A DNA stretch of 63,688 nt, filler included, from Octopus bimaculoides (lineage: Eukaryota), in the NCBI RefSeq assembly GCF_001194135.2. It is 8 parts of 6 records of this genome, joined end to end, with 100 filler letters (N's around TTAATTAATTAA, not from the genome) between each part and the next. Parts side by side here need not be neighbours in the genome. Positions count along the whole stretch, not along the records: positions 29,495 to 49,294 come from NC_068987.1; positions 49,395 to 54,679 come from NC_068987.1; positions 54,780 to 60,126 come from NC_068989.1; positions 60,227 to 63,688 come from NC_068991.1; 4 more parts are not named here. One strand, given 5' to 3'. The stretch's first letter is position 1, and every line of letters starts with the position of its first letter. Under the pieces are notes generated by a model. The model had not been told where the DNA came from and did no database searches. It saw only the letters and a list, made by a program, of their open reading frames with translations. Made by a program: the position numbers and the translations under genes. Shown piece after piece: positions 31,688 through 60,903 of the stretch.

Positions 31688-31733
<46 letters not shown>

Positions 31734-33426: not shown

Positions 33427-33479
<53 letters not shown>

Positions 33480-33569: not shown

Positions 33570-33608
<39 letters not shown>

Positions 33609-36600: not shown

Positions 36601-37590
36601 GGACCGTACATTTATATGAGAGAACCTCTCAAGACGAACGTCACAGCATTCGATGCTCTAATAAAAGATTCGAATTTAGTAGGATATAAAGGCCGCTTTT
36701 CGGTATTAATACAACTTTCATCGTTAATATTTAGTTTTATATAAGAGGGTTGTCTATTGCAACATCAGTGACTTTATAGTTGGCTGCGAGCTTTGGCTGA
36801 TATAAAGGTCACCGAACCACTGGAGAAGCGTAGCACGTTAAAATCACATGATCTGGTAGTTCCGACGCACACACCAGACCGTTCTTGTCTGCTAAAATAT
36901 AGGTCAGTGTTCTTAGTACCATACGTCTATATGAAAGGTCTTCTCAGGGCGAATGCAGTTGTATTCGGCACTCTAATACAGCATCCACGTTTAGTCTAAT
37001 ATAAAGAATACCTTTCGGCATTAATATTGTTTCCGTCATTAATATTTACAAATTGATAAATGTATGCATCTAGGTCCGGTAGAGACATGTATCTGTCATG
37101 TCTTTACGTATATTGCCATATATGTCTGTGACTCATCCGAATTGTTGCCAGAGGTACTGTATCTGTGAATATCCATGTATTTCTATGACTGCATGTCAAA
37201 TATATACGAATGCACCTATGTAAATATATACATAACATATATAATATGAGTGTGCCTAAGTAAATTTCTATGTACACGCCTAAGGAGGTCCAAGATATAT
37301 GTTTATGCGTATGTATAGATACATATATTCTAAAATTTGGACAGACGTAACACAGGAACAAACCTGAAAATTCACACACACAAGACAGGACTTTATAAAT
37401 TACTCGTCATGATATATATATATGTATGTATTTATGAGTTGCGGGAAACTGCTCTTGCAATCCATAAATTAGGAAACTCTAGAGTAGCAAGAGACTACAT
37501 ATGTGTGTGTGTATGTATGTATGTATGTATGTATGTATGTATGTATGTATGCATGTGTGTATGTATGCATGCATGTACGCATGCATGTAC

Positions 37591-37628
<38 letters not shown>

Positions 37629-40103: not shown

Positions 40104-40149
<46 letters not shown>

Positions 40150-42350
40150 NNNNNNNNNNNNNNNNNNNNNNNNNNNNNNNNNNNNNNNNNNNNNNNNNNN
40201 NNNNNNNNNNNNNNNNNNNNNNNNNNNNNNNNNNNNNNNNNNNNNNNNNNNNNNNNNNNNNNNNNNNNNNNNNNNNNNNNNNNNNNNNNNNNNNNNNNNN
40301 NNNNNNNNNNNNNNNNNNNNNNNNNNNNNNNNNNNNNNNNNNNNNNNNNNNNNNNNNNNNNNNNNNNNNNNNNNNNNATATATATATATATACGGTAAAA
40401 AAAGAAAATGGAGGGGATACAAAAATGATATACATCAGCCGGTAGACATTCTATTGTCTATTTATTCTAAAACATAAGGAAGTATTATAAGAATGTATAC
40501 ACATGCAAAGACTGTGTGCTACACAAATATGTAGTAGTAATACATAAAAGAATAAAATATTAAAAGATTAAGAGATCAGTTCCTTACGGCCGTTTCTGCC
40601 AAGAGGCCACGATATCCTCCATGCTACCTCCATCTCTTCAGTGTTGGGATGGGTAGATAGAGTTTGGCTGTTGAGAGTGCCTCTTGGCTTCTTCAGAGGG
40701 TCTAAATAGCCTAAATAGTTAGGATAGCCGAAACATACAAGAGTCAGTTACCAATAGGTACAGTATATTTTTTCTTATTGAAGAGGGCATAAGAAGAATA
40801 CGACCAAAAGTTAGTGTAAGAGGAATAAAATTTCGCAAAATGGATTAGGTATAGGAAAGGGAAACAAGTCATAGACTTCAAGTGTTGCCTTCCAAGATTC
40901 ATGTTATTTTGTCCAGTGGTGGATAGGTGGATACAGTTTTTCTAAGGAGGAATTTTTAAGGAAGGGTAAATTTGGGCAGTGGTTCTTATTTTGCTTACTT
41001 ATAAATACACGTTATGTTTACAGTGATGGGTTTGAAACTATGGTCCGTGTTTCGGTGGTGGAAGTTTATATGTAGGATGCCAGCTGGTACTAAAGAGAGT
41101 ATGGCACCAGGTGGTGTTCATGCTCGCTATTTTTCGATCAACAAGTCCCTGAATCCTTGTGTGCAGTGGGATAGGGGTTATGGTCAGTCCTGCAACCTAA
41201 TTGGTCAGCTATTGTTTTGAAAACTATGACGCGATTCCGGTTCGTTGAGGGCTAACAGATAACACAAAAACAGATCAGATAAATAAATAAGTAAATAACT
41301 AAATGAGTAAGTAAATAAACAAATGAGTAAGTAAATAAATAAATGACTAAGTAAATAAATAAATAAGTAAATAAATAAATAAAAGCCGTGGCCACTATGC
41401 ACAAGTAGAAGAGCAAAATGACATTCAAACTAGATTAAATTAAAGTAAAGTAAAACAAGTAAAAAAAATAAATCAGTATGTGAGTGAGTGCAATAATTAA
41501 AGCAATACGATTAAGGGGATATGATCTTAAGGGACAGCATAAGAAAATAACTTATATATAAAGCACGATTTATTCGATATCAGAGTTGTGCGAAAACCGA
41601 GGTACTACTGTATATTCATACATGTCTACATTTATGCTCGTCTTCCACAAAACCTTATACATTTTCTTCTCTTTTTTACTTCTTCTCCTCCCTTTGTTCC
41701 TATTCTCTGCCATTCAGATTTGTTTTCCATTATTCATTTACTTGATTTTCCTCTCTCCGCTTCTTCATTATTATCTCTGCGTTTTACCTTCCCCTTACAT
41801 ACCTACGCTTTACCTCTCTATGTCCTTTTTCCTCTTCCTCTTTGCTTAATGGGCTGGCTCTCTAGAACCATTCCGACAGTTGCTATATATAGGAGACCTT
41901 TCATTTACTGTTTTTATTTGAAAATGCTTGACTGAAAGTAGTTTTGTAAGGGCTATGTTACATAACTACAAGAAACATGTGTGTTAAATGTGTATTGAAT
42001 GCGCTTGTGAGTGAGTGTATCAACGAGACAAGATGATAGTTGAATAGAAGTGCGTGAATGTTTGTATATATGCGCATGTAAACGAAAGGCATGGATGGGT
42101 AGGGAGAGGAGTAGTCCAAGGAAGGTATGTGTTTGTGTGAAAGCTTTGTTAGTGTATTGAGGGTTTGCCTGTAAGTGTAGAGATATTGAAAGATTAGATA
42201 AGAGGAGTGGGGATGGAATGGAGGACTAAAATGGGAGGTGCAGGTGGATGTGGGGTAAGTAGATGGGAGGAGAAGCAGAAGAAAGATGTTTGTGGTGAAA
42301 TGCAAGTTATTAAAATTGCATTAGTGAATTTATACGAAAAGACGTGTACA

Positions 42351-42408
<58 letters not shown>

Positions 42409-44435
42409 CTCCTGTGCTTTCTGAAAACGAGTGGAGGGGTTTGCAGCTCTTTACATATTTGTAAATACAAAACTTGTTGCAATACATAACTTATTGATTC
42501 AATGAAAGTTACTGAGATATGTTTCAAAGTTTTTATATATTTGAGTAAGTCTACCATAATACATTGCTTGCAAATAATGAAAATAAAAATAGAGTTATAT
42601 TAAATGGTAATAAATATGCTGTCAAATGAATATAAACAGAAATGAAATATAAATGAAAATGCCTAGAAACATAGATATATTTAGATGGTCTTGGAAACTA
42701 TATATAAGCAACTAGAGCCTTTTTTGCCGTCACTTGTGTGGAGATGAGAAGTGGGTATTAAATAATTATGTCTAAAATATATTGCAGTAAATTGGATTGT
42801 TATTCTAACAATAACTGGACAGAAAAAATTTCGATGTCATTTAATCATTTTGCATTGCACAACTTACCTGAAATTTATTTTATTTATTTATTTATTTATT
42901 ATAATCATATATTCTGTTTATAATATTCTAACAGAATATGATTTTCATTTCAGCACATGAAAGTAAAAACCAACATCAGTTGAGACCTAAAGGAAAAGGA
43001 ATTTATAATTCAAATATGTCTTCTTTATTTCACCATGTCTTCAAATGCTATATTTCTTTGAATTAGAGAGGTCATATATCAATTCTCGAAATTCAATTGA
43101 AGTTGCATGCCATGCATATAGAATGAGATCGTCATAAGAGTAATTTGAAAATCTAACCTGTACTGTTTTGTCTCATATCTTCAAGAACATTTCTTGCACG
43201 TTCTATGTCAGAATCTAGTTCTGGCAGTCCAGCAGTGACACATTCATTAATTACTCTGTCTAATTTGCCTTTGTCACCTTCCCTCATTGCGTTTCTGAGA
43301 TTGGTTCGCAGAGAGTCAGGTGTTTTATTTCCTAACAATGAAATACATATGACAGTGAGAATTTCATGAAATTGTGCGTGTTTATGAAACCATGCCATGC
43401 AGAAAATCGAGAAATACGTATCCCGTAATTGATTCTTTTGTGATAATCTAATTCATGCACATTTATATTTCAACTTTAAAAGAAATATTCACTAGATCAT
43501 TCAATAAAACAGTGCATGCACTAAGTGAATGAAAGATGAACTTCTATTTAGATATGAATCACACATCTAAAATGTACAATCCCGTAAAATGGAAAAATCG
43601 CTATATTCGAAGAAACATTGAACTAAATTTAACTCGAAACGCCATAAACACATAGGAAAGGAAAAAAAAACAGAAGATAAGTGAGAATAATTTCTTACGC
43701 GAAAATAAATGTATGAAAGAATGAAACTAGGAAATGTTAGAAACTGCTAATGTTAGTTATAAATTGACATAAGAAACAACTATTTCACACCGGCAATATT
43801 TAGCAATTTTTTATGACAACATAATATAGAAAACCTTGCTGCTGACCTCCACGACCACCACCAAGAGACTCTAGAGTATCCCTAGCTTTACAAAGATCAG
43901 CTGCTAGTTCTGGATAACCAGCTTCTTCACTGTCTGCAATGGCTTTCTGCAGTTCACCAATATCTTTCTGACGAATAGCACGAGCCAACTGACTCTGCAA
44001 TGTATCTGAAGGTACTACATCTAGTAAAATCGAAGAAAGAAGTAATTAAATATTGATTTATAACATCGGCACCACGCATTTTGGGGGAGGATAAAATTGA
44101 TTGAATAAATTGCAGTATTCCACTATTATTGCATTTTTAATGATCCTAGAAGGGTGAAACTATCACAGTGGGATTTAAACTCAGAACGTAAATGTTTGTA
44201 ACTCTATACCTTAATGTATTTCATCCAACTCCCTAACGGTGAAATATGAATAAAATCTATATATACTTATTATTGCAAATAAATGTTTATTTCTAAATAT
44301 CTAAAAAGATAAAACGTCTGTGATGTAAATATTAACGTTAAAATTTATCTGGAATACAAAGACTAAAAAGCTATAGCAATCAAGAATATCATGAAATTTT
44401 AAATCCTTATATTCTACAAAGTATACTGTGAGAAT

Positions 44436-44469
<34 letters not shown>

Positions 44470-47400
44470 TTTCTCTCTCTCTCTCTCTCTCCTTTTCTCT
44501 CTCTATCTTCTCTTTACAAGCTTAAATGTCTATAGAGGGACAGCGAAAGTCTTTCGCATTACATCGTGTGTTAATTTATCTTGCATCAAGCTGCCTAATG
44601 AAATTATATATAATGAAACCCGTGATTTATATAGTAACAGGTTTGAAACTATGAGCATAAGATATCGTAACATTTTACATTTGCAAGTGCAACATCGTAA
44701 CGTTCATCTTTATCTGAGAATACTTTCTTGATCATAAAAAACCCAAAAGTAAGTAACACATCTCATAAATGTAAATTTTAGGTTTGAGAGCTTATGTCAA
44801 AGAAGTAGATAGTTAGCAGATACCAACAATTTCATTAAGATTGGTATGTTGTATATTCTCAGATAGCAATTAATAATGTTTGATGTGATAATATAATACC
44901 TTTAAACATGTAAAATTTGCCAACGATCCACTTAAAGAATCTAAAATGCACTGCCTTTAATGTACTTCAGCATTCAAGTAAAATATATATTTTGAACAAC
45001 CTCTCAAGAAATACGCAATATCTTAGGTCAATAATCACGATCAAATATCAGCTGATTAGTCTATTGTGTAACTGTACAGTAGAATAAAGGCTAACCTCCA
45101 GAGCCACCACCAAGAATATCTGATACACGTCTTGCTTGTTGTATATCAACATCCAGTCCTGGCATGCCGGCTGCTACACTTTCTTGGATAACTCTATCCA
45201 ATTCACTTTTATCTTTAGTTTTCATTGCATCTTCAAGTTTGTCTCTTAACATATCTGCAGATATTGTTCCTGAGTGTAGATAATAATTCAAGTAAGAATA
45301 AGTGATAAAATATACTGGAAATATAAGAATTGCCTACTCTTAGTACAAAGAGTATTAATATATAACATTTCTTCAAAACTTCAAATAAATTATTTTTGCA
45401 TAACATATTTCATATAGAGCATGCGGACATATTAACGTATTCGTTTAATATATATATGTATGGTTTTGAAATAATACTGTATAAAGAGACTGTAATTTTG
45501 GCAAAGACAGTATTAAATAAGAAAAATCTGCATAAGGCGTTTTGCAATCATACAACTTATTCTATGGTAACTGCAACTACTTATACAGTAAAATTGATAT
45601 TTTTTTAAATAGGCTAAAGCCATGTTCATATTTCTCGGGCATTTTAAATTCATTTTGTGGGACTAAACCTCGAAGACTGTCGTATCAGGATATGTAATAT
45701 AATCGCCCTTGACTCTCATTAATGCGATTAAATATTGGTATCCCATTAAGACACAAACACTCTAATGTTTGTAACTAAAGGAAAATAAGTTATTGTGTCT
45801 CACCATACTTTACATCTTGTTCTACAGAATACACAATGAATTGTGTAATGGGAACACTAAATTTTGTATTGCAGGATACAGTCTGTGACACGAAAGCATA
45901 TTAATTTCTTGTAATAAGTTTTGAAATGCTTCAATGAAACAGGTATTTACCAAAAATTTATATTTGAACAATTCTATGTTACTTTGCCAATCTTTTAGCC
46001 AACTGACAATCGACAAGTTTTAAAACATATTGCATGAGAACGATGTAAGTTAGAAAATTGGGAAAAAGATGAAATTACTATATATAAATATATATATATA
46101 TATAAATAATGTTCAAATTTTATACGACCGCTAAAAAAAATAGACAGACAGACATATATACATACAGACAAACAGACAAACAGATAGATAGATGTAACCC
46201 ACAAGTTTAAAGACTGCGTCGCAGCAATATAAATTATACTATATATATTTCGAATCACACAAAATGCTAACCTCCACATTCTCCACTCAGGCTCTTCAGA
46301 GTATCTCTGGCTTGCCGTAAATCAGAACTCAGTTCTGGATATTTGGCTTCTTCACATTCGCGGATTAGTTTCTCAAGCAGTGGCCTGTTTCTTTCTTTGG
46401 TTGCTTTCTTTAGTTCATTACGTAAGGAAACGGGCGATCTCGAACCTGACAAGAGATAGTTGCTAAGATTAAATAAATGCTCGTCTTTGTCCTGTTGTTT
46501 TTCTTGTTTTAGATATTAGATTGTTTTTGTTTTTGGTTATTTCCCATGAATATGAGCGTTATTATGATAGGACTTCAAATGTAGTTGTTTCATTTTACTA
46601 CGATAGAACTAGAATATTGCGTTAAATGTTTAATTATAACGATTACAAAATTGTTTACTTAATTTTTTCTTTCGTTTTTTATCTTCTGCTTATATTTAAA
46701 TAGAAAAATTGAGGATGAGATGCATGCGTACGTGCTCGCACATGCATGTGTATGTGTGCGCGCGTATGTGTATAACCTTTTATCTTTTGCTTGTTTCAGT
46801 CATTATACTGCGGCCATCCAGGGACACCGCCTTGAAAAACTTTAGTCGGACGACACGAGCATTTTGTTTAAGGTTGGAACTTAATCTATCGGACTCTTTT
46901 GCCGAGCTGCTAATTTACAGGGAAGTAAACACACTAACACCTATTGTCAAGCTGTGTGAGTCAAGACAAACGCAGACGTATCGATTTATTTTTCTACAAG
47001 CATCTGTAAATGTAATTGCCCTACTGAATGCTACCGCGAAAATATGTACGCATATCATAGTAATTTGATGTGTAGGTGTTTCATTTCTTGTCCATTGCTT
47101 TACTATTACACTAAGTTTAGCGCTCTACAATACAGTTACATTACCTGCTACCAATATCAACAAATATGATTAATAATGGTCAAATTTCCAACAACCACCT
47201 ACTGACATATTTTGACCATTTATTTCTTTATTTCTGCTATTCTTATATCTGTTTCTAGAAACGAACTGAATTTTTGTAGCTCATCTTTCGTAAAGATAAT
47301 TCTTTCAAATTAAGTAATAATCCGCTCACATGAGAATTATGTAGAATGAATAATGCAAATATCACTAATATCATTTTGTGTTGGATTTTCAATGTATTGT

Positions 47401-47612
47401 GCTCTGGTTACGTATTATAGCTTATATCATAGCGCATTTTACATGCGGTTTTAAGAGTTTAACACGGTAAACTATATTGAACTCTAATATAACTGGCTAC
47501 CTATTATAATGATATATGTGTATACATACTTGTATGTGTATGTGTAAATTATATGTATTATTTATATAGTACGTAATATATACATATATATTACTAGACC
47601 AAATATTATAAA

Positions 47613-47646
<34 letters not shown>

Positions 47647-48279
47647 TAGACCAAATATTATAAAAGGGTATTATTTTGAACTGAGAAAAAGATACGGCGA
47701 GCGATTGAGAGATGAGCAATATATACACACATACATGTGTGTGTAATATATACATACACACATATTTTTGTCTGTGTTTCCAGTGTTGTCCGAGCTTTAC
47801 AAGCTCATCTAAAAGCTCTGGATTACCAGCTTCGCTGTTTGCAATGACGTTTTGGAGTTGATCAACATTTTTCAACCGATTAACACGAGTCAATCGACTA
47901 TGTAATATTTTTAAATGTACTACATGCCAGATGCATAAAAGGAAGTGTGTGGATGTATATGTATAGGTATCTGCATGCACAGGAACATAAATAAATAAAA
48001 ACAGAAAGCTTCCTAATTATCAGGGCTGCTTTTATCAAGCAGAAGCTATATGGAAGGAAGATAAGATCCGTACGCTGCAGTATGTTAATTTGACTCACTG
48101 ACCTGGTTGGTGCTTCTCACGTAAGTCGTGGAGTAATTCTCTTGCTTTCTGCACATCTGTGTCTAGTTCTTGCAGTCCAGCTGCTACACATTCGTTTACT
48201 GCACTTTCTAACTGGGCTTTATCTCCATGTTGCATAACGTTTGATAGCATTTGTCGTAATGCTTCTGGTGATTTACTTC
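29495..48279 (-). CDS. Multi-exon gene segment encoding at least 15 tandem ~58-aa helical modules (about 860 aa visible); start and end not established
   Basis: All 14 exons have AG acceptors and the 13 complete ones have GT donors, all phase 1, so they splice into one open frame (2445 nt for the 13 complete exons). Shared pattern: LR..L..A....D...L...I.E(C/S)..AG.PEL..D(I/L)..AR..L. Confidence 0.88.
29937..30110 (-). CDS. Exon 13, module B1 (174 nt)
   Basis: ctttgccag| ... GGAG|gttaga; DLKTVESLRDELEKATKLKDKVALRQIIEDCEGVAYPELSWDLSKARDALESLGGGRG. Confidence 0.9.
30311..30487 (-). CDS. Exon 12, module A1 (177 nt)
   Basis: ctctgtcag| ... AAAG|gtacat; GTKTPESLRRKLKSAMKQGDKDTLDKVIHECIAAGMPELDVDISVARDLLKDVKISPPK; not in the ORF track. 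Confidence 0.88.
31830..32003 (-). CDS. Exon 11, module B2 (174 nt)
   Basis: ttcttatag| ... GGAG|gtagaa (weak donor); DIRTPDNLRDQLEMAGKRKDVKKIQEVIHECEKAEYAELGNDLRKARDILERLGGGRG. Confidence 0.82.
33116..33289 (-). CDS. Exon 10, module A2 (174 nt)
   Basis: cattattag| ... GGAG|gttaga; GTKSVDSLRENLRSAMESKDKNALAKAIRQSVAAGMPELDSDIQQARRISDILAGGTG. Confidence 0.88.
33750..34100 (-). CDS. Exon 9, fused modules A1+B1 (351 nt = 177+174)
   Basis: atccgatag| ... GGAG|gttagc; GVISVDGLREKIDLAI...LEENKSL/ESKSPDSFRRRL...LKSLGGGLG. Confidence 0.9.
34570..34743 (-). CDS. Exon 8, module B2 (174 nt)
   Basis: tacttgcag| ... GGAG|gtttgc; EVKSPAALLNQLAKAIKQKDVPELSKIIAECEILGYPELNSELRRARINLEDLGGGDG. Confidence 0.88.
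35221..35394 (-). CDS. Exon 7, module A2 (174 nt)
   Basis: gatctatag| ... GGAG|gttaga; GSISPFALRENLKAVMKSNDKRHLDKTIRNCVAAGMTELEADIQQARSVSDILGGGSG. Confidence 0.88.
35725..35898 (-). CDS. Exon 6, module B1 (174 nt)
   Basis: tttttctag| ... GGAG|gttagc; EPKPSEILRDEIAQAIAERDKYSLEKLISECEKSLYPELGRDLSAARDALESLGYGRG. Confidence 0.9.
36258..36992. repeat. Intronic inverted repeat (arms 36258-36443 and 36807-36992) with a third, more diverged tandem copy between them
   Basis: gaactaccagatca versus tgatctggtagttc, aaacgtggatg versus catccacgttt, and agcagacaagaac versus gttcttgtctgct are exact reverse complements. Confidence 0.8.
38714..38966 (+). mobile_element. tRNA-headed SINE
   Basis: gtggttaggacagcggactcgcgg...ggtttcgattccc...tttattgagcgaaaa; the head is shared with the 16.4-16.8 kb SINE. 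Confidence 0.75.
40005..41610. mobile_element. Tigger/pogo-like MITE with ~55-bp TIRs and TA target sites, inflated by internal insertions
   Basis: TA|cagtagtacctcggtttacgaac ... gtgcgaaaaccgaggtactactg|TA. Confidence 0.7.
43158..43331 (-). CDS. Exon 5, module A1 (174 nt)
   Basis: cattgttag| ... ACAG|gttaga; GNKTPDSLRTNLRNAMREGDKGKLDRVINECVTAGLPELDSDIERARNVLEDMRQNST. Confidence 0.9.
43847..44020 (-). CDS. Exon 4, module B2 (174 nt)
   Basis: ttttactag| ... GGAG|gtcagc; DVVPSDTLQSQLARAIRQKDIGELQKAIADSEEAGYPELAADLCKARDTLESLGGGRG. Confidence 0.9.
45096..45269 (-). CDS. Exon 3, module A2 (174 nt)
   Basis: tacactcag| ... GGAG|gttagc; GTISADMLRDKLEDAMKTKDKSELDRVIQESVAAGMPGLDVDIQQARRVSDILGGGSG. 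Confidence 0.9.
46272..46445 (-). CDS. Exon 2, module B1 (174 nt)
   Basis: tcttgtcag| ... GGAG|gttagc; GSRSPVSLRNELKKATKERNRPLLEKLIRECEEAKYPELSSDLRQARDTLKSLSGECG. Confidence 0.9.
47777..47925 (-). pseudogene. Decayed B2-type pseudo-exon
   Basis: Aligns to exon 4 at DNA level (ATGTAGTAC..., GAGCTT-GTAAAGCT versus GATCTTTGTAAAGCT). The acceptor position reads GC instead of AG, there is a 1-bp deletion, and the 3' end and donor are lost. Confidence 0.82.
48103..48279 (-). CDS. Exon 1 of the visible array, module A1 (177 nt)
   Basis: attgatcag| ... CCAG|gtcagt; GSKSPEALRQMLSNVMQHGDKAQLESAVNECVAAGLQELDTDVQKARELLHDLREKHQP; not in the ORF track. Confidence 0.88.
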
Positions 48280-48869
48280 CTGATCAATAAAGTGTGGAAA
48301 ATTCCCAAGACTTTAGATATAATTTTACCAAAATAATCTTTCTGTAAAGAAGCATGCAGATGAGATAACAGAAATGCATGCTGGTGACTCCATGCCTTTA
48401 TACACAAAGTTGACTCACTTTTAAAATTTCCATATAGCTAACTGAAGCATTGATCTCTTGACCATAAGCTTTAGAAATAACTACACTGTGTATATAGAAT
48501 TCAAGAGTAAACTTCATATGCGCAGAAATCAAAATGTAGGGTATGCATTTTTTTTTTAATGCTCGTTAAAACATTTTAATTAAAAAGTGTTGATTTAAAT
48601 ATTTAGTATTATAATTTTCTCTCCCCTCTCGCGAGCTCTCTATTTCTTTTCTCTCTCACCCTGTCACTCTCTCTCCACACACACACACACACACAGACAC
48701 ACACATATACACACACACACACACATACACACACACACACACACATACACACGCACATCATATATCAAAAGTTGACAGTGTACACTGAGTTTCAGCCCAT
48801 CCGACTAACCCTTGCCAACGTGGAGTACAGTCGTAAAGTGATGATAATGATCATGAATATAATATATAT

Positions 48870-49293
48870 ATATATATATATATATACAAATAATATGTAA
48901 GTATATGCATATATACCCACATGTATGTACACACTTACATCTACATGTATATATAGATGCATATCTGGGTACAGGGCGTCACAAAAAAAAACGTGGACAA
49001 AATGAGAACAGAGTACTGAAAACACACAGGCCACATAGAGAACATTTCCTTCATCAGCTGCCACCATTCTAAAACTAAGTGTTTCGAAGAGTAGGGCAGG
49101 ACGCATTGCTAGAATGGCTCTTCCCGCGGAAACAAATTAAATTTGTAATGCGGAAAAATATAGTGGCGAACAGAAAACACGACAGGAGAACGAAACAATG
49201 AAAATAAACAAGAAGGGCTAGTAGGGTCAGAAGTGAAAAAAATATATATGTATGCAGAACGCTGTGATGTGACGAACGGAAAAGATAAGAAGA
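48870..49293 (-). mobile_element. Dispersed ~430-bp element carrying a permuted hammerhead-like motif (copy C host)
   Basis: Colinear and similar to 60226-60660; its 3' tail GACGCCCTGTACCCAGATATGC is also similar to the 10.28-kb tail. Confidence 0.75.
49051..49123 (-). ncRNA. Permuted hammerhead-like motif, copy C
   Basis: GAAGAG-CCATTCTA-GCAAT-GCGTC-CTGCCC-TA-CTCTTC-GAAACAC-TTAGTTT-TAGAATGG-T-GGCAG-CTGATGA. Confidence 0.65.
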
Positions 49294-49646
49294 ANNNNNN
49301 NNNNNNNNNNNNNNNNNNNNNNNNNNNNNNNNNNNNNNTTAATTAATTAANNNNNNNNNNNNNNNNNNNNNNNNNNNNNNNNNNNNNNNNNNNNTTTTGT
49401 GAATGAAACAAACTAGATCCTAAATAAAAAATGAATGCTTAATATGACAAATTTTCAGATTTTTTACGTCATTTTAAAAAGGAGCTGATTCTGTGTCTCA
49501 AACTAACCAGATCCAAGTATAGTGCATACCATCCTCCACAATTTGCTACTCATATGAAGTACATATGTATTTTAACAATTTCTATCAAATACACTCTCTT
49601 TCTTGAGCATAAAAAATCCTCTTCCTTGATGACAATAACTTATATA

Positions 49647-50037
49647 TGTGTGGTAAGTAGCTTGCTTACCGACCACATGGTTCCGGGTTCATTCCCATTG
49701 CGTGGCACCTTGGGCAGGTGTCTTCTACTGTAACCTCGGGCCGACCAATGCCTTGTGAGTGGATTTGGTAGACAGAAACTGAAGGAAGTCCGTCGTATAT
49801 ATGTATTTATGTATATGTATGTGTGTGTATATGTTTGTATGTCTGTGTTTGTCTCCCCAACATCGCTTGACAACCGATGGTGGTGTGTTTACGTCCTCGT
49901 AACTTAGCGGTTCGGCAAAAGACACCGATAGAATAAGTACTAGGCTTACAAAGAATAAGTCCTGGGGTCGATTTACTCGACTAAAGGCGGTGCTCTAGCA
50001 TGGCCGCAGTCAAATGACTGAAACAAGTAAAAGAGTA
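49647..50037 (+). mobile_element. Full-length tRNA-headed SINE with internal TA/TG tract
   Basis: gtgtggtaagtagcttgcttacc...gggttcattccc head; tail aaggcggtgctctagcatggccgcagtcaaatgactgaaacaagtaaaagag. Confidence 0.8.
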
Positions 50038-50929
50038 TATCAGATTGTTGCACAAGATCTAGCTGTTTTGATAAGGGAAATCGGAAAGGTTTGAAATGAT
50101 TTCATCGGCATTTATTTGTACCAAAGAGCAATCTTTCGATAGACGATACGTTGATCTCATAAGTGTCGCGTGGTGGGAATAAACGCANNNNNNNNNNNNN
50201 NNNNNNNNNNNNNNNNNNNNNNNNNNNNNNNNNNNNNNNNNNNNNNNNNNNNNNNNNNNNNNNNNNNNNNNNNNNNNNNNNNNNNNNNNNNNNNNNNNNN
50301 NNNNNNNNNNNNNNNNNNNNNNNNNNNNNNNNNNNNNNNNNNNNNNNNNNNNNNNNNNNNNNNNNNNNNNNNNNNNNNNNNNNNNNNNNNNNNNNNNNNN
50401 NNNNNNNNNNNNNNNNNNNNNNNNNNNNNNNNNNNNNNNNNNNNNNNNNNNNNNNNNNNNNNNNNNNNNNNNNNNNNNNNNNNNNNNNNNNNNNNNNNNN
50501 NNNNNNNNNNNNNNNNNNNNNNNNNNNNNNNNNNNNNNNNNNNNNNNNNNNNNNNNNNNNNNNNNNNNNNNNNNNNNNNNNNNNNNNNNNNNNNNNNNNN
50601 NNNNNNNNNNNNNNNNNNNNNNNNNNNNNNNNNNNNNNNNNNNNNNNNNNNNNNNNNNNNNNNNNNNNNNNNNNNNNNNNNNNNNNNNNNNNNNNNNNNN
50701 NNNNNNNNNNNNNNNNNNNNNNNNNNNNNNNNNNNNNNNNNNNNNNNNNNNNNNNNNNNNNNNNNNNNNNNNNNNNNNNNNNNNNNNNNNNNNNNNNNNN
50801 NNNNNNNNNNNNNNNNNNNNNNNNNNNNNNNNNNNNNNNNNNNNNNNNNNNNNNNNNNNNNNNNNNNNNNNNNNNNNNNNNNNNNNNNNNNNNNNNNNNN
50901 NNNNNNNNNNNNNNNNNNNNNNNNNNNNN

Positions 50930-50931
50930 TG

Positions 50932-50973
<42 letters not shown>

Positions 50974-51021
50974 TTGCTGCTGCTGCTGCTTCTGCTGCTG
51001 CTTCTGCTTCTGCTGCTGCTG

Positions 51022-51068
<47 letters not shown>

Positions 51069-51101
51069 GCTGCTGCTTCTACTGCTGCTGCTGCTACTAC
51101 A

Positions 51102-51163
<62 letters not shown>
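50930..51163. repeat. (CTA)n/(CTG)n trinucleotide tract next to a gap
   Basis: Direct inspection. Confidence 0.95.
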
Positions 51164-52714
51164 AATAAGTATCAGCAATACATTTGAAGATGAGGAAGAG
51201 AAGAAAGAGACGAAGGTTGCGGTGAAAGAAGGCGCGGGATGGTAATAAAAGAACTTTATGTCGACTCATTTACTCACTGTTCGATGTCAAGGCCAGGAAT
51301 ATTTATATTTCTCTTAATCATATTGACTTTATGCGGGTAAGCACAAGATTTATCTTGTGCTTACCTTAGCCCAGCTTCACATAAATCTCACTAAATCCTC
51401 TCAATAATATATTATGTAGTCTTGATTGCCAAAGACAATTAAAAAAAAAAATATCGGTAGGTTCTCAAATCCAATCTTTAAGCGATTATGCAAGTAAGTT
51501 TCCCCTCCCACTCTCTCTCACACACATGTGTGAATGCAAGTGCAAGCGCGCACGCACACACACACATACATACGTATGCATGTATACACACATACACATA
51601 CATACATACATACATTAATATATATATNNNNNNNNNNNNNNNNNNNNNNNNNNNNNNNNNNNNNNNNNNNNNNNNNNNNNNNNNNNNNNNNNNNNNNNNN
51701 NNNNNNNNNNNNNNNNNNNNNNNNNNNNNNNNNNNNNNNNNNNNNNNNNNNNNNNNNNNNNNNNNNNNNNNNNNNNNNNNNNNNNNNNNNNNNNNNNNNN
51801 NNNNNNNNNNNNNNNNNNNNNNNNNNNNNNNNNNNNNNNNNNNNNNNNNNNNNNNNNNNNNNNNNNNNNNNNNNNNNNNNNNNNNNNNNNNNNNNNNNNN
51901 NNNNNNNNNNNNNNNNNNNNNNNNNNNNNNNNNNNNNNNNNNNNNNNNNNNNNNNNNNNNNNNNNNNNNNNNNNNNNNNNNNNNNNNNNNNNNNNNNNNN
52001 NNNNNNNNNNNNNNNNNNNNNNNNNNNNNNNNNNNNNNNNNNNNNNNNNNNNNNNNNNNNNNNNNNNNNNNNNNNNNNNNNNNNNNNNNNNNNNNNNNNN
52101 NNNNNNNNNNNNNNNNNNNNNNNNNNNNNNNNNNNNNNNNNNNNNNNNNNNNNNNNNNNNNNNNNNNNNNNNNNNNNNNNNNNNNNNNNNNNNNNNNNNN
52201 NNNNNNNNNNNNNNNNNNNNNNNNNNNNNNNNNNNNNNNNNNNNNNNNNNNNNNNNNNNNNNNNNNNNNNNNNNNNNNNNNNNNNNNNNNNNNNNNNNNN
52301 NNNNNNNNNNNNNNNNNNNNNNNNNNNNNNNNNNNNNNNNNNNNNNNNNNNNNNNNNNNNNNNNNNNNNNNNNNNNNNNNNNNNNNNNNNNNNNNNNNNN
52401 NNNNNNNNNNNNNNNNNNNNNNNNNNNNNNNNNNNNNNNNNNNNNNNNNNNNNNNNNNNNNNNNNNNNNNNNNNNNNNNNNNNNNNNNNNNNNNNNNNNN
52501 NNNNNNNNNNNNNNNNNNNNNNNNNNNNNNNNNNNNNNNNNNNNNNNNNNNNNNNNNNNNNNNNNNNNNNNNNNNNNNNNNNNNNNNNNNNNNTAGTACT
52601 GCCCAAATGTCGAGATCATAAGAATTTCTGATAAGCAGCTGACGATAAGATGTCTACGTTTGTTTTGCATCTTTTGGGGTTTTATTTAATGTTCTCATAT
52701 CAGTGTCATCCTCT

Positions 52715-52990
52715 ATTGTGATCCAGAGCCAGACTGTAAGTCGAGAGTTCTACTGCGACGTTTTGAAGGGTTTCGGAGAGGACATTCGGCGAAAGGGACC
52801 GGATCTGAGGAGCGCGAAGAATTGGATCCTTCACGACGGTAATACACCCTGTCATCGAGCTCTCCTCACTCGTGAGTTTCTCGCCAAAAACAACATGGTA
52901 TCGCTTCCGCATCCGTCATATTCGCCAGATTTAGTACCTGCTAACTTCCATCTCTTCCCTGAAGATGAAAATGCAGCTCAAAGGTCGCCT
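52715..52990 (+). mobile_element. mariner transposase C-terminal fragment
   Basis: FYCDVLK...NWILHDGNTPCH...LPHPSYSPDLVPANFHLFP. Confidence 0.85.
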
Positions 52991-53237
52991 TCTGTTGTTT
53001 TGGACTGGTCTGAGTAGAGCTTTAGAATGCTTTGGAAGTTATTTGAGTTCGGGTTAAGCGCCTGTTGTCGACCAGCTTTTGTATCTAATGCTTTAATGTA
53101 AGTTGGAATTTCGTAAATTGTTTTACATATTTGTTTTAGTGGTTTCCTTGCATGTGTGTGTGTGTGTGTGTGTTTGTGTGTGCCTGCGTGCGTGCGTGTG
53201 CGTGTGCGAAAGAAAGAGACTAAAACTATGTTCTCAG

Positions 53238-53600
53238 AGCAACAGGTGCGCAGATTCTCATTCGTCAAGTGGCGGATCACATTATCGAGGAGACATTTAA
53301 CGTCCTAGACACAAGGTAAGTAACCAATACTTGGAAGTTACGATAACAACGTGATGTTTCCTCTTATGACATGACTGGAGATGATTTCTTTTTCGACGTT
53401 TCAATAAGGAACTGTGATGGAACTGACTTATCCGATCACTTAAGACTGTTTATTCATGATATCCTCGGAAATCGCACTTCCCATAGATCTGGAATGCATG
53501 GAGAGGACGCCTGTATACACTCATACAATATAAACAACTATAGCATGGACAAATTTGGAAAGGATTCAATAAATCTATTCAAGTACTTTGACTTAAGTAT
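53238..53600 (+). CDS. Candidate two-exon coding fragment (53238-53315 and 53409-~53600), product unknown
   Basis: ttctcag|...ACAAG|gtaagt, a 93-nt intron, then tttcaataag|G. The phases join in frame: ATGAQILIRQVADHIIEETFNVLDTRNCDGTDLSDHLRLFIHDILGNRTSHRS... Confidence 0.35.
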
Positions 53601-54623
53601 ACTTATTAACATTAATTTAATGATAGTAAACTGCATACATATCCCACTAATTTTAAAATCTAGAAAATATAGCCTTTAGAGAAATCAAATGAAAACAATA
53701 AATACATTCACTAAGTTAGGAACAGCTCTCTAAACATAATTAGAGCCATGTATCTAGAATAAGCAAAAGAGTCTGTGATCCATAATTGGACATGGACATT
53801 TGTAGCAGAGTTGCTCCTTATCATAACGATGTGCTAACTACAAATGGCTCCACTGAAAATATATGGAAAACTATCCACCAATAGCACATCATACTGGAAC
53901 AGAACCGGGATGATGAAAGTAATCTGGTTTAATCCGCCGTATTTCTAGAATTTAACCACGCCATAGGTTTGCAAATAAAATGTACACTGGTGTGCGTATG
54001 TGACTGTTAGGTGTGTGTGTGTGTGTGTATGTGCGTGCGTGTGTGTGTGCGCGTGTATGTGTGTGTGTGTGTGTGTGTGTAAATATATATGTAGTTCGTN
54101 NNNNNNNNNTGCTGCTAATGTAGTTAAGAATATACTACACTTCTAAGAACTGCATGAAGTTTGTTAGGGTCATAGCTTCTAAAGGATTGTGGTTCATTTT
54201 TAAGTTATTAGTCTTTTTTTATCAGCTACCAAATCTAAGGCCAGAGGACTGTGTACCCTTGATAATTTCCTCTGTATTAACATCATAGGTTTTATTAGTG
54301 TCTTGCCCCTTTAACTGGTAATTAACATCTTGATTTGGGGTTTTCTTCTACCCAGCCTCCTTTATAGACAATTACTTATACAAATCCTAAAATCTTGACA
54401 ATATTTATGACCATACCCAACGATAAACTGTCAACTCACTCCTACCCTCCATTCTAAACAGACACTTAAAACGGTCTACTGCATCACCTCTTGATATCCT
54501 GTTGCTTATTTTGATTTTATGAATATATATATATATATATATATATAATTATAATTAAGGATATCAAAAGATATATCTTCATGCTAGATACAGCAGTCAA
54601 AACCAGATTCTAAAACCGCATCA

Positions 54624-54658
<35 letters not shown>

Positions 54659-54879
54659 ATATATATATATATATATATANNNNNNNNNNNNNNNNNNNNN
54701 NNNNNNNNNNNNNNNNNNNNNNNTTAATTAATTAANNNNNNNNNNNNNNNNNNNNNNNNNNNNNNNNNNNNNNNNNNNNTATATATATATATACGTATAT
54801 ACACACACGAACACATACATGTATGTATATATATATATTAATTAAAGGACACATTAAAGTGTCCAGTACGTATATATAT

Positions 54880-56147
54880 TGGTTCGTTCGACACATAATG
54901 CATGAACTAAAAGTCGAAGGGGACGGGATAAACTACCTGCATCAACTTGCTATAAATGCAGGTAGTAATTTTACCATGTGCTTATTCTTAGTGCAAGTTT
55001 TGAAGAGTGCAGTTCGATTTTAACAGTTATTTTTCAAAGCTATAATGGAAGTGACAAAGGAGCATATTCGGCATATTTTGCTTAAAGATTTCAATAAAGG
55101 CAACAACGCAAAAGAATGTGGGAGGAATATTAATGCAGTGTATGGGGATTGGACAATAAGCGTAACCCAGTGTCAACAGTGGTTCTAGAAACTAAGAGCC
55201 GCAAACTACAGCCGAGAAGACGAGCCTCGTCCTGGAAGATCTGTAGAACTCGACGAGGACGTCCTGCAAACACTGGTGGGACACAATCCCATCGTAACTG
55301 TTGAGGAACTAGCAGAGAACCTTAGATTTGGTCATTCAACAGTTCATCGAGACCTGCATGCCATCGAAAAAGTCAGCAAATTTGGGTCAATTAGTTCCTC
55401 ACAAACTTTCCGAGTCTAATCGCACGCAAAGAGTGAATGTGTGCTCTTCTTTGCTGTCACGTCTCACGAATAAACCATTTTTGGACCGAATAGTGATTGA
55501 TGACGGGAAATGGGTTCTCTATAAAAATGTCAAGCGCTGATGTCAGTGGGTAGGGAAAGGAGAAACACCAGTACCCCAGGTTAAAGAAGATCTTTAACCA
55601 CGTAAAGTGTTGTTATCTCTCTGGTGGGATATGAAAGGTTTAGTCCACTTTGAACTTTTAAACCTAAACCAAACGATAGCAAAGGAGATCTACTGCGAGC
55701 AGCGTGAGCAGCTTAAGTTAGCACTAGAAGAAAAATGACCATCTCTTGTTTCAAGACGAAAGGTGTTCTTCCATCAGGATAATGCTCGGCCACATACAGC
55801 GAGGATGATATTCAAAAGGCTGGAGCAGTTTCAATGAGAAACGATGCCCCACTCACCAAATTCGCCGGACATTGCCCCATCTGATTATTATTTATTCCGC
55901 AGTCTTCAAAATCATTTGGACGGAAACAATATGAATTCTGTAGACGAGGTCAGAAGAGTACTAGAGGAGTATTTTTCGTCAAGACAAGTGAATTTTGGAA
56001 GAGTGGCCTTCCAAGTCTACTAGATAGATGGAAGAGCATTGTAGAAAACGAAGGTGAGTATGTTTTAGATTAAAAACAACTTTGTTTATCTTAATTTTGA
56101 AAAATAAAAGAAGTATACAAAATTGCATTATTTATGGGAGGGATGAT
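54880..56147 (+). mobile_element. Near full-length degenerate mariner, same family as 27488-28398
   Basis: EHIRHILL, GRSVELDED, LVPHKL, RIVIDDGKWVLY, WWDMKG, HQDNARPH, SPDIAPSDYYLF and a right TIR abutting the gap. Confidence 0.9.
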
Positions 56148-56599
56148 NNNNNNNNNNNNNNNNNNNNNNNNNNNNNNNNNNNNNNNNNNNNNNNNNNNNN
56201 NNNNNNNNNNNNNNNNNNNNNNNNNNNNNNNNNNNNNNNNNNNNNNNNNTATATATATATATATATGGAGCAATAAATAACAATGAGAAGTTGATCATTG
56301 GTATTAAAATGTCATAGTTTGATTGTTGTTCAGAACCATTTACAGCTGTTTCTGTTTATGAAATCGAAGTAAATTTGCATTTATCTCGCTCCATTTAACA
56401 AACATCGTCAGAATGAATTAGAGGAATATAAATAGAAGAAGGGAAATGAAAGGAAAAGGAAAAAGCAAAAGAAAAAGGAGAAAGTTCGTTAAGTCTTTAG
56501 GCTTACATTTTAGTGACGTTTTTGGTTCCACGTGTGTACATTTCTTCAATTAGATGAGTAGAGCAGTAAGTGGGGAAAGTGACTAGTTGACCGGCGGTG

Positions 56600-57900
56600 T
56601 TAGCCAAAGGAGTTATACCTGGTGGAGATATCCGGTATTGTTAATTGTAATATATAACGCTGTTAGTGACCGCTAGGTTAGTCCCTATGATAACAAATAA
56701 TGCCCTTGTTAAAAATTAAGGATGCTTTCTAAAGTTAGAACGACATAATGTATATATATATGGGCTACGTAAAGGAATAATAAAAAAGGTAAAGAGCAAA
56801 TAAAAAAATTTAAAAAATCAATAAAATATAACGTGTTATGTGAGTCGGCAATCTAGCTTTAATGTGAATATATTATCGAGGATTATATGCCCTGGTGTAT
56901 AACGTAGAATTTTAAATAGATAGTTTGGTTAATCGGGGTAATTTAATTTAAAATTATGTTGTGATGTTAAATTTATGCTCTGTGGTAAATGGGATAATTA
57001 GGGGTGGTATTAAGGTGTTAGGCAGGTCAGCTAGTAACCTGTAATGTGGGTATTTAGAGTATAAGAATTTATCTTTATGCAAACATGTTCTATTTTTTCT
57101 CGTCTCGTTTATTAAGTAATTCTGATGTGGCCATTAACATGAAGAATTTCTCATTTATGCATAAATTACAGCGATTATTATTAAGGTTATATGAAGATGT
57201 TTTGGCTAGGATACGCCATTCTAATCTATAATTAATGTTATTGTCCTTCAGTTTCCAGATGTAACTACTTAGTCCGGTAGAGTTTGCTTTACTTCTATTT
57301 CTGAAACTTGAACGATGGGAATTATATCTAAGTTTCATTTCATTTTTAGTTGCTCCAATATAAGCTTTCTTGTAATTATTAGAGAGTACATAGCATTACG
57401 TTTTTAGTGTAACATTTATTTAAGAATTCACAAGTATTTTTATGTCTGCAGCCACAGAAATTAGTAAGGTTATCTATGCCTATGGTATGTTGGGGGTGGG
57501 GTGTATTATTTATAAGGTGGTTGTTCGAATTTTTAGAGGGCGAGTTATTTGGGGGATCCCTTATTATATCAATCAGTTGGTTGTTGTGCTTTTTATTGTT
57601 ATTCTTCCTAGTATCATAGAAGGTGTCTAGCTTTTTATTGTTGATAGAAGCTATGATAGTAGCTAGGTTGTTAGGCTATATCCTACTCTAATTTTATTGC
57701 TAAAGATTTCTGAGTATTTGATATTCATATTGACGTGCTTATTTCTAAGTTTCATTATAAGACTTATTATTTATAAGTCTCATTATAGATTTAACTATAT
57801 TAGTTTTTTGTTGCATCGCGAAGGGGATTATTAGCTAGGACTATATATAGTGAAGTAATACACCAGTAGTGCCTACGAATACATTTGTCCCTTAGATGGT
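56600..57900 (-). mobile_element. Penelope-like element remnant (GIY-YIG C-terminus)
   Basis: KLRYNSHRSSFRN...TGLSSYIWKLKD...WRIL...RCNLCINEK...LLNKRDE (ORF 57090-57338). Confidence 0.85.
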
Positions 57901-58038
57901 TGCATAACCTCTAACTCATAATTTTCTCTCTCTCTCTATATATATATATTTATGTATAAACTTAAATTATAGTGAGTAAATTGTGGTTTAGAGTGACAAC
58001 TCTGTTCATAGCAAGTGGTATTTCAATACCTTCTGTAT

Positions 58039-58098
<60 letters not shown>

Positions 58099-58539
58099 NN
58101 NNNNNNNNNNNNNNNNNNNNNNNNNNNNNNNNNNNNNNNNNNNNNNNNNNNNNNNNNNNNNNNNNNNNNNNNNNNNNNNNNNNNNNNNNNNNNNNNNNNN
58201 NNNNNNNNNNNNNNNNNNNNNNNNNNNNNNNNNNNNNNNNNNNNNNNNNNNNNNNNNNNNNNNNNNNNNNNNNNNNNNNNNNNNNNNNNNNNNNNNNNNN
58301 NNNNNNNNNNNNNNNNNNNNNNNNNNNNNNNNNNNNNNNNNNNNNNNNNNNNNNNNNNNNNNNNNNNNNNNNNNNNNNNNNNNNNNNNNNNNNNNNNNNN
58401 NNNNNNNNNNNNNNNNNNNNNNNNNNNNNNNNNNNNNNNNNNNNNNNNNNNNNNNNNNNNNNNNNNNNNNNNNNNNNNNNNNNNNNNNNGTGATATGTGA
58501 TTTAGAAAATGTTTTTTTTTAATTTCAGATACAGGAAAT

Positions 58540-58770
58540 ATAGAAACGGATCGAAGTTTAGATATAACATCAAAGGAGAAGAAAGAAATTGTGAAACTAT
58601 TGGAGCAAGAGGATACAAAATTGTAATTTCTAAAAAGGTAAATAGCGATCACAGAACCAAAAAAAAAAAAACAGGTACAAAACATTGAGAGAGTAAGAAT
58701 AAGGAAGAAAACGGGTTTCAAGAACATCACAAATAGAGATAAGAGAAAGCTCAAAAGAATTATAGGTTAC
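58540..58770 (+). mobile_element. Tc1-like transposase N-terminal remnant
   Basis: DITSKEKKEIVKLLEQ...ISKKVNSDHRT...RIRKKTGFKNITNRDKRKLKRII. Confidence 0.6.
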
Positions 58771-60225
58771 ACTCAGCTGGTATACCGAAAAAAGGGGAGA
58801 AAGGCAGATTGATTGGGACTGGGGTTTGTTAATTATAAGAAGCAGCTGGGTTAATTCTAAGAAGCAGATATTTCTGTATTTGCTGTGGAAAGGTGAGCAA
58901 GTGGAAACAGCATATCTTGAAGATAGGCTAGTCTTTGCTTATTAGCTAAATGATTTAAAATGTGGTTTAATATCTTTGTGCGTGTTATGAACTATACCGT
59001 CCTTTGTATATGTGCGCGCGCACGCATGTGTATGTGTGTGCATGTATGAGTGCACGGGTTAAACGATTGTGAAGCGTACTCGCCTAGCAACAGGCGGAGA
59101 GCGGAATTTGTAAAGGCAGGATTCATATTTTTTGGTCAAAATAGACGTTAACGATTTTTAAACTTTCTTGAGCCATAATCGATAAGAAACATAGGCAGAG
59201 GGGTGTGGGGTGCAAGTAGAAAAAAATAAATGAAAGGAAAAGAAAAAGAAAAAGAAAGGAATTTTGTTGCGTTGCAAGATCAAAGAGTTAAACCATTTAA
59301 AATGGAAAAAGTTGGTTATTTTGAGATAAGTATGAACGACTTTCATGAAGTGAAGCTAATGAATATATATGCATAAACTAATGAACATACAACCATACGC
59401 ACACAACTCACACATCCACACACACACACACACACACACGCACGCACACATATACACAAAGACAGACGCATCTTACACATACAAACGAACATACTCATGC
59501 AAGAATAATACATATAAACACAAACACACACATGTACACACACAAACACACACTTGTACGTACACAAACAGACACATACACACACATACAAACGCACATT
59601 TGCACACATAGAAGCACACATATGCAAAGAGATATACACCCATGCAGAAGCAAACCTAAGTACACACTCATAAAAATGCACGCGCGCACACACATACACA
59701 AAGACACAAAAGTACATTCATACTCTCATACTTATATACAACCACCGATGGGTATTTGTCTTGAAACAGCGTCGCCATTTCTCGCCATTTCTCGACCAAA
59801 TTTCACAATGAGAAATTATGCATTGGACAAGAAAAGAGAAAAAACTTCGGGTTACCTGAGGAATAAAACGAGTAAGAGTCAAGAAAGGAAATATATAAAG
59901 ATCGAAAGTTCTGATACAATAGTAGAGTAGGAGGTTTAGATTGAGATACAGAACCTTTGTCAGTTTATCTCTGCTCTGCCTGTCCCTTCAATTTTTCTCT
60001 AATCACTCTCATTCACCCTTATCTTTATGGCTTATGGGATGTATGCATGTATGCATGCATGTATGCATGTATGCATGTATGTATGTATGTATGTATGTAT
60101 GTATATATATATATGTATATATGTATNNNNNNNNNNNNNNNNNNNNNNNNNNNNNNNNNNNNNNNNNNNNTTAATTAATTAANNNNNNNNNNNNNNNNNN
60201 NNNNNNNNNNNNNNNNNNNNNNNNN

Positions 60226-60660
60226 NATATGCATATATACGTACAGGTATGTACATACCTACGTCTACCTGTATATATAGGTGCATATCTGGGTACAGGG
60301 CATTGCAAACAAAACGTAGACAAGAAAATAATAATAACCAGAGTACAGAAAACACACAAGCCACATAGAGAACATTTTCCTTCATCAGCTACCCCCGTTT
60401 TAACACCGGCGTTTCGAAGAGTTGGGCAGGACGCATCGTTAAAACGGCTCTTCCCATGGACCGAAAATTAAATTTGTATACACAAATTAAACCTGTGCCA
60501 TGGAGGAATGTAGTGGCGGACAAAAAAGCAAAACAGGAAAACAAACGGAAAAGGCTCTGCGGCCAGACGTGAAAAATTATGTGTATATGAACGCTGTGCG
60601 GCACGAACTGAAAGTAGGGACGAAGTAAGTTCGCGTGTTTGCTCGGCGATAGCCAAGGGA
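60226..60660 (-). mobile_element. Dispersed element carrying a permuted hammerhead-like motif (copy D host)
   Basis: Colinear with 48870-49293. Confidence 0.75.
60382..60453 (-). ncRNA. Permuted hammerhead-like motif, copy D (best preserved)
   Basis: GAAGAG-CCGTTTTAAC-GAT-GCGTC-CTGCCC-AA-CTCTTC-GAAACGC-CGGT-GTTAAAACGG-GGGTAG-CTGATGA. Confidence 0.7.
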
Positions 60661-60764: not shown

Positions 60765-60903
60765 CAGCGAGAGAAAGAGAGGAATATAGTAGTAACAGAA
60801 GGAAGAACGAGAGGGAAAAGAGAGAGATACAGTAGTAACAGAAGGAAGAACGCGAGGGGTAAAGAGAGATACGTAGTGGTAACAAAGGAAGAACGAGAGG
60901 GGG
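60765..60903. repeat. Three ~43-bp purine-rich minisatellite units
   Basis: agtagtaacagaaggaagaacg at ~60788 and ~60831, with a variant at ~60875. Confidence 0.85.

Follow-up and report, generated by a model that had tools for sequence, protein, structure and literature searches.

A predicted rewired hammerhead ribozyme in an octopus repeat and in the 3' regions of Naiad-type Penelope elements

The repeat family and the anatomy of its four copies

The DNA analysed here (the window) is a stretch of 63,688 nucleotides (nt) from the genome of Octopus bimaculoides (assembly GCF_001194135.2), in which four copies, A to D, of a repeat that encodes no protein each carry a motif with the letters of a hammerhead ribozyme in an unusual order. 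By pairwise identity the four copies form one repeat family: C and D are 74% identical (397 columns), A and B 75% (397 columns), and C and the region of B 60% (377 columns); a profile built from the four found no fifth copy in the window. A and B lie head to tail on the plus strand (9425-10300), in units of about 400 nt ending in (TA)n. The repeat body around C occupies 48903-49294 on the minus strand and has lost its 5' end in an N gap, and the homologous, non-coding body around D occupies 60227-60613, also on the minus strand, with a TA-rich 3' part that enters an N gap and a CT-rich 5' continuation reaching to about 60945, within which a 43-nt sequence is arrayed three times (60774-60901).

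Copy D is the most intact, and its whole predicted ribozyme spans 60377-60508 on the minus strand. Reading 5' to 3', it opens with the strand UUCCU of helix c (60504-60508), which pairs with AGGAA immediately 3' of A9, and continues with a hairpin, P0 (60454-60503), the 3' strand of which abuts strand a (GAAGAG, 60448-60453), the upstream partner making stem II. Strand b (60440-60447), which pairs with 60402-60395, forms the helix through which stem I interacts with stem II. There follow block S, the sequence holding a stem III strand, GUC and a stem I strand (60424-60434), block G, with a' (CUCUUC), GAAA (60415-60412) and the other stem III strand (60409-60421), and finally a segment (60377-60394) that takes in the strand pairing in stem I, the CUGAUGA at 60388-60382 and, at 60381-60377, c'. 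By analogy with hammerheads, the cut is predicted between 60430, where GUC ends, and 60429. In general form the order of blocks is c, P0, a, b, III-NUH-I, a'-GAAA-III, b', I-CUGAUGA, c'. Copy C (49046-49158, minus strand) has c at 49158-49154, P0 at 49153-49124, a at 49123-49118, GUC ending at 49100 (with the predicted cut after it), GAAA at 49085-49082 and CUGAUGA at 49057-49051, with one mismatch in stem III and two G.U pairs in c. On the plus strand, copy A (9678-9796) has the same layout with different stem letters, an AUA site and its core at 9785-9791, and is decayed in a and b, while copy B (10071-10189) also keeps the layout and, judging from its core at 10178, mutated to UUGAUAA, is probably inactive.

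A first-pass annotation of the window had described the motifs of C and D, with a GUC site, a stem I of CUGCC(C) with GGCAG or GGGUAG, a stem III of GCGU/ACGC, a/a' of GAAGAG/CUCUUC and, between C and D, two compensatory pairs in helix b, where A-U changes to G-C and C-G to U-A; the window sequence bears all of this out, on the minus strand. The motif begins further 5' than it was drawn there, as c and P0, which we recognised by comparing the four copies, add 49158-49124 to C and 60508-60454 to D. The same annotation noted that the strand before GAAA pairs best upstream and not with the AGG after CUGAUGA; the upstream pairing of stem II stands, but the helices that account for this AGG, c and P0, had been overlooked. 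Both adjoin A9 and stem II, in most cases with no intervening base, and for this reason we predict a four-way junction within the core.

Scored out of 30 with a descriptor of the full layout, D reaches 29.5, C 27, B 22.5 and A 19.5; in 60 local dinucleotide shuffles, which yielded 1624 candidates, no score exceeds 19.5. Two other sites of the window picked out loosely by the descriptor, with cores at 14784 and 13060, were dropped on account of their A/U-rich stems. The score of the upstream helices was reached by none of 60 shuffles in C and by none in D. Since the descriptor was derived from the same four copies, the comparison of its scores with those of shuffles is partly circular and an independent test was needed, for which Naiad-type loci were used.

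Recurrence of the layout in Naiad-type Penelope loci

At 6336-6890 (minus strand) the window contains a decayed reverse transcriptase (RT) fragment of a Naiad-type Penelope element, closely like the published Octopus Naiad consensus sequences when compared by eye; no ribozyme was found behind it. A word-index protein search with a 62-amino-acid piece of this RT found nothing, and a HMMER search with a 52-amino-acid piece gave at least 150 relatives, 24 of which were aligned; the lead protein bears, by eye, the Naiad marks of an N-terminal GIY-YIG-type motif, CxC and DKA. The test set to which this query led consists of 80 of 295 confirmed metagenome loci of Naiad type, 276,767 nt in all, and was searched with a filter for the core in the order site, GAAA, CUGANGA (NUH, stem I, GAAA and stem III) that made no use of the upstream helices. 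Twelve of the 149 CUGANGA sites on both strands pass this filter, and all 12 follow the open reading frame in sense orientation, one in each of 12 loci.

In these loci the upstream stem II, a/a', has 70 Watson-Crick (WC) pairs at 72 positions, against 17 WC and 8 G.U pairs at 72 for a stem II in the canonical place. Helix b has 70 WC and 2 G.U pairs of 72, helix c 51 and 2 of 60, and P0 39 and 5 of 48, and most helix positions show from two to five types of pair. Because helix partners were taken as the best of a search, shuffled versions of the upstream region were put through a search of equal freedom: in 11 of the 12 loci none of 60 shuffles attained the observed score, and in the remaining one, L048, a single shuffle did. 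Folding alone locates P0 in 15 of the 16 motifs (window copies and loci together), three of these being placed otherwise than by the descriptor, and the 4 nt preceding the P0 so placed form 45 WC and 5 G.U pairs of 60 with the 4 nt that follow A9, whereas the same pairing slid by 1-3 nt gives 12-25 WC pairs. Across the 16 motifs stem I is paired at 79 of 80 positions and stem III at 63 of 64, both being filter criteria in the case of the 12 loci. Strand a starts in all 16 with a G opposite the C before GAAA, so that stem II is closed by a G-C pair, as fits a real G10.1-C11.1 pair. The core letters (CUGANGA, GAAA, NUH and A15.1-U16.1) are intact in A, C, D and the 12 loci and mutated in B; GAAA precedes CUGANGA by 23-45 nt, and stems I and II are joined by a linker of 2-7 nt (3 nt in C and D). 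This layout is maintained at a median identity among the 16 of 34% at helix positions. Since 13 divergent motifs submitted to MAFFT defied alignment outside GAAA and CUGANGA, pairs were counted from the parse of the descriptor. The order of the blocks, the complementarity and the covariation in all six helices are demonstrated at the level of sequence, and with them two earlier proposals gain ground, namely that RNA structure has been under selection in a mobile element and that stem II has an upstream partner, since both layout and partner recur in 12 independent Naiad-type loci with other stem sequences.

Could the active form still be an ordinary hammerhead of type SGC, with a short stem II after CUGAUGA and an extra A as in CChMVd, for which a/a' and c would be inhibitory? 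There is a precedent for an extra A10 in part of the literature (PMC3705267), and downstream pairs are available: three in C and in D after one extra A, two in B, and three in L048 with no extra base. Yet 11 of the 12 loci have 0-1 contiguous pairs there, the published pattern for stem II matches one motif out of 16, the pairing of a' with a is more stable than that with the downstream strand in all 16, and the G that opens strand a faces the C before GAAA just as regularly. We therefore consider such a switch, a possibility raised in the first-pass annotation, distinctly unlikely, and as a trait of the family it is unsupported because of the 0-1 canonical pairs after A9 in those 11 loci.

In a quick tree of the 80 RTs the 12 motif loci all fall on one side of 29 rows, separated with a branch support of 100, and the motif occurs in none of the 51 loci on the other side, 32 of which retain at least 500 nt of 3' flank. 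No Rfam hammerhead match was obtained in 20 loci at gathering score, nor in 13 loci at E<=3, and a collection of viral contigs gave no Naiad relative and no match to a DNA pattern of C/D type. Among the loci on the motif side that lack the hammerhead layout, L014-L016 contain in their 3' flanks a motif resembling twister-P5 (L014:3076-3135, E 0.045, below Rfam gathering), and stretches similar to it by eye are found in the 3' flanks of L057 and L008. Its corresponding place in sister Naiads suggests a slot for ribozymes, and Naiads may swap ribozyme classes. A weaker match to twister-P1 was seen at L039:4555-4618. The 3' flanks of L011, L017 and L050 have in common an apparently structured motif, with no Rfam match, where relatives carry predicted ribozymes; it is a candidate for a new self-cleaving RNA. 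In the 3' flank of L042 there is a duplicated GC-rich structured stretch, similar to a pseudo-long terminal repeat (pLTR), with no hammerhead core.

The layout can also be recognised in published elements. By eye, the consensus 3' untranslated regions (UTRs) of Naiad_Obim and Naiad_Ovul in the supplement of PMC8557442, as far as available, have the same layout, with a third set of stem II letters (a/a' GACACC/GGUGUC), a GUA site and a stem I, CUGCCC/GGGCAG, that is that of C; in Naiad_Esco the layout is present but decayed. Craig et al. (2021; PMC8557442) describe Naiads, in the text at hand, as preferring (TA)n and devoid of canonical hammerheads, and mark eight of them as 'HHR_half_core', the other half lying 35-50 nt off on either side. 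The new layout accounts for two of these eight, Naiad_Ovul and Naiad_Esco; in Parc, Nbra-3, Hpol and Smim, of the same group, CUGANGA precedes GAAA, and the eight are completed by Dst-3 and Dst-4. One more Naiad 3' region of that supplement shows, by eye, the S-G-C order, stem I and GAAA being set apart by a long hairpin. The window repeat thus has the terminal RNA element of autonomous Naiads together with a TA-rich context, and from the common layout, the stem I sequence and this context we infer its Naiad descent.

Reads, proposed function and the weight of the evidence

The stretch of D, whole or in part, is present in 20 of 24 sequencing runs listed, four of which were examined in detail; two insect-metagenome runs in which its share is small were left out of the evidence. 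The repeat is abundant in DNA, with 7062 contigs of run X1 and 3906 of X13, and is matched by 3147 of 12,895,792 records of the RNA run X24. Among the variants, a change of A-U to C-G in stem II (60451 + 60418) is found in one contig of X17, a run that we guess to be RNA, and among first-mate-plus reads of X24 (195 of 511 and 144 of 482), and a change of G-C to A-U in helix b (60445/60397) is common in X24 reads (202 of 498 and 349 of 572). Markers of the compensatory variant are much less frequent in X1 DNA: 60474, for example, is carried by 86 of 411 reads in X24 versus 104 of 856,024 of summed depth in X1. This rarity in DNA hints that particular loci are transcribed, although the two runs come from different individuals. 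Loose read ends at 60420-60423, two joints at 60430 and the divergence of one X13 consensus there, all at or near the predicted cut, were not counted as evidence of a cut, because loose ends occur at many other places.

The X17 contig with the stem II change, 734 nt long, returns head to tail, the behaviour expected of a tandem unit and of a circle alike. Together with the tandem of A and B, with the palindromic a or stem III strands of some loci (L004, L005 and L013) and with the dimeric action of many hammerheads of Penelope-like elements, according to the parts of the literature available, this contig lends some colour to a ribozyme assembled between two tandem units or two molecules, the neighbour supplying a or c. 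Such an assembly is very improbable in our estimation: all helices close in cis within about 130 nt, Naiad loci have a single motif each, Naiad_Ovul is listed with no pLTR in the available part of PMC8557442, and the stems of C and D are non-palindromic except for P0 of D. Nor is there support for dimers being required, stem III forming a complete helix, of at least 4 bp, in cis.

How, then, might a hammerhead core form when the strand after CUGAUGA does not enter stem II? The fold that we propose would retain a normal core, in which stem II is a/a', closed by the G-C pair adjoining G12, and A9 would lead into helix c instead of being linked to the opening G of stem II. Helices c and P0 would stack as one helix, with A9 and the first G of a flanking its nick, so that a four-way junction would stand in for the backbone link between A9 and G10.1, a link known to tolerate an extra base in natural hammerheads (PMC3705267 and PMC4209133, in the portions available). 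Helix b would tie stems I and II, as in type SGC, and the topology would be that obtained by closing the two ends of type SGC on each other and opening the chain anew within the core. G12 and G8 would presumably act as in other hammerheads, including the PK form described in the accessible part of PMC11300833, and cleavage would occur in cis after NUH (60430/60429 in D). The cut could process read-through or tandem transcripts to linear or circular RNA of unit length, which the RT and endonuclease of Naiads might reinsert at TA-rich sites, in the manner proposed for Penelope and retrozyme hammerheads.

Several results weigh against this fold or its generality. In RNA, X24 has no pile-up of read starts or ends at the site and represents both strands equally, and the variant 60395 C>A (156 of 566 reads) breaks or shifts an end pair of b. 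Helix c is short, its 5-nt c/c' duplex being unstable in C (+1.6 kcal/mol), and a constrained energy fold recovers c beside P0 in only two of 16 motifs, in a longer form displacing P0; this test keeps the body of the ribozyme unpaired and penalises a long unpaired body, and in 14 of 16 motifs it leaves 0-1 nt between the end of P0 and strand a. The upstream helices of A are at shuffle level (28 of 60) and those of B marginal (3 of 60), while plain folding of the window copies, with a tool that ignores pseudoknots, does no better than shuffles (z -1.9 to +0.6). Among the loci, L012 and L020 are near-duplicates (97%), and 17 of the 29 on the motif side of the RT tree have no motif, some being cut short and others having different structures. 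Finally, blastn of the window repeats against the 80 distant metagenome loci gave only four matches, of 17-25 nt; as there is no wider nucleotide similarity to these loci, Naiad descent rests on the common RNA layout.

The first of these results is also what would be expected if the fold were real and selected, but non-cleaving or dependent on protein, for instance a structure for RT binding or template ends derived from a hammerhead. The broken A9-G10.1 link would suit such a history, as would the frequently poor cleavage in vitro of hammerheads from Penelope-like elements and the failure of eight of nine retrozymes assayed in one preprint to cleave, both reported in sources available in part. 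On the other hand, all catalytic letters are kept in the 12 loci, even if the filter demanded them, no motif with a relaxed core and the full layout was found in 12 sister loci, and no variant falls in the core of D among 40 variant rows listed out of 96. A non-cleaving fold thus appears unlikely to us. Mere chance complementarity in a decayed repeat, with which the z values near zero and the lack of enrichment of CUGAUGA in the window (8 observed vs 9.2 expected) would agree, can scarcely be entertained: it is refuted by independent loci in which the layout returns in other letters, and the comparison of the descriptor with shuffles, the pairing of c anchored on P0 and the Octopus Naiad consensus sequences all speak against it. 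On balance we think it probable that C and D belong to a non-coding repeat of high copy number, which likely branched off from Naiad-type Penelope elements as a non-autonomous form, with a predicted self-cleaving hammerhead that has been rewired.

The surroundings of the repeat are rich in other repetitive DNA, with gaps, microsatellites, pieces of DNA transposons and Penelope-like fragments. A multi-exon gene at 29500-48280 (minus strand), with many similar exons encoding a 55-amino-acid repeat and no convincing Pfam match, shares its strand with C and D and lies just downstream of C; if C and D were intronic in this gene, its pre-mRNA would contain predicted ribozymes in sense orientation. 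At 56500-57700 (minus strand) there are the decayed remains of a Penelope-like element, in which a weak Pfam match marks a C-terminal GIY-YIG, and near 56550 there is by eye an apparent remnant of a mutated canonical hammerhead. A long imperfect inverted repeat at 25042-25191, probably a miniature inverted-repeat transposable element, has CUGACGA in both arms (25042/25185) and was rejected as a hammerhead, for it lacks the hammerhead layout. An Rfam scan of the window gave no ribozyme match, only miRNA matches driven by microsatellites and one tRNA match, which is above gathering score at 24194-24265 (minus strand) and possibly the head of a short interspersed nuclear element.

Comparison with known systems

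The closest relative in block order is type SGC (HRIMA-1), which Eckert et al. (2023; PMC10085705, as available) report from metatranscriptomes and from no genome of a known organism. Both types have the order site, GAAA, CUGAUGA, a short linker between stems I and II, all core letters and an extra helix (here b) that connects stems I and II at their far ends. To this extent the first-pass suggestion of an undescribed topology has to be narrowed, as the order was known; what stands is the unusual layout that recurs in 12 loci. In contrast to type SGC, the stem II strand here lies 5' of the site, c and P0 meet at A9, and the motif is found in animal DNA and in the 3' UTRs of transposons. The patterns used for type SGC, in the text available, require (U)G and stem II right after CUGAUGA, block C being assumed unbreakable, and this sequence of CUGAUGA(U)G plus stem II is present in one of our 16 motifs (L048); it is for want of the defining intact block C that we set the layout apart in spite of the common order. 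It equally departs from types I-III, as its order is S-G-C and not the circular C-G-S and no stem II strand directly follows A9. In the PK hammerhead (Zhan et al. 2024; PMC11300833, available part), too, an upstream strand supplies most of stem II, and there the core works; that form, however, keeps CUGAUGA before GAAA and a contiguous G10.1-C11.1, whereas here GAAA comes first and G10.1 is provided by another strand. Judged on its sequences, the present layout is a predicted hammerhead of new topology. Searches of the open-licence literature yielded no hammerhead split between CUGAUGA and stem II and no type SGC in an animal genome, although subscription journals or the HRIMA-1 alignments may hold one.

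With moderate confidence we go a step further and regard the motif as a natural class of hammerhead beyond the six permutations, with CUGAUGA split from stem II and a four-way junction restoring the link from A9 to G10.1, which would process the transcripts of a single Naiad lineage throughout marine invertebrates, and those of its retrozyme-like offspring. This would challenge the stated assumption behind the six permutations, show why genome-wide patterns have missed the layout and move non-circular permutations from metatranscriptome contigs to animal chromosomes and transposons. If this is true, animal genomes hold non-circularly permuted ribozymes in abundance, which the c/P0 clamp could allow to be regulated, and the question of why Naiads lack hammerheads becomes directly testable; a core with its A9-G10.1 link replaced by a junction, and with two free arms (P0 and c), would also offer a scaffold for structural work and for switchable ribozymes.

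As to their biology, the window repeats are reminiscent of non-LTR (long terminal repeat) retrozymes (Cervera and de la Pena 2020, PMC7229834; Li et al. 2026, bioRxiv 10.64898/2026.07.22.740005; both as available), which are likewise non-coding, low-GC animal repeats of a few hundred bases, tandem or solo, with a hammerhead, and are thought to be mobilised by Penelope-like elements. The unit of A and B, about 400 nt, is of such a kind, and the contig of the C/D subfamily (734 nt) is longer than their 170-400 nt. Retrozyme hammerheads are of type I, whereas the present one is non-circular, contains a junction and points to Naiads. With the Naiads of PMC8557442, to judge from the available part of that work, the repeats have in common the association with (TA)n and the motif that autonomous members carry in their 3' UTR (recognised by eye in Obim, Ovul and Esco and by script in the 12 loci), and they differ from them in being non-coding.

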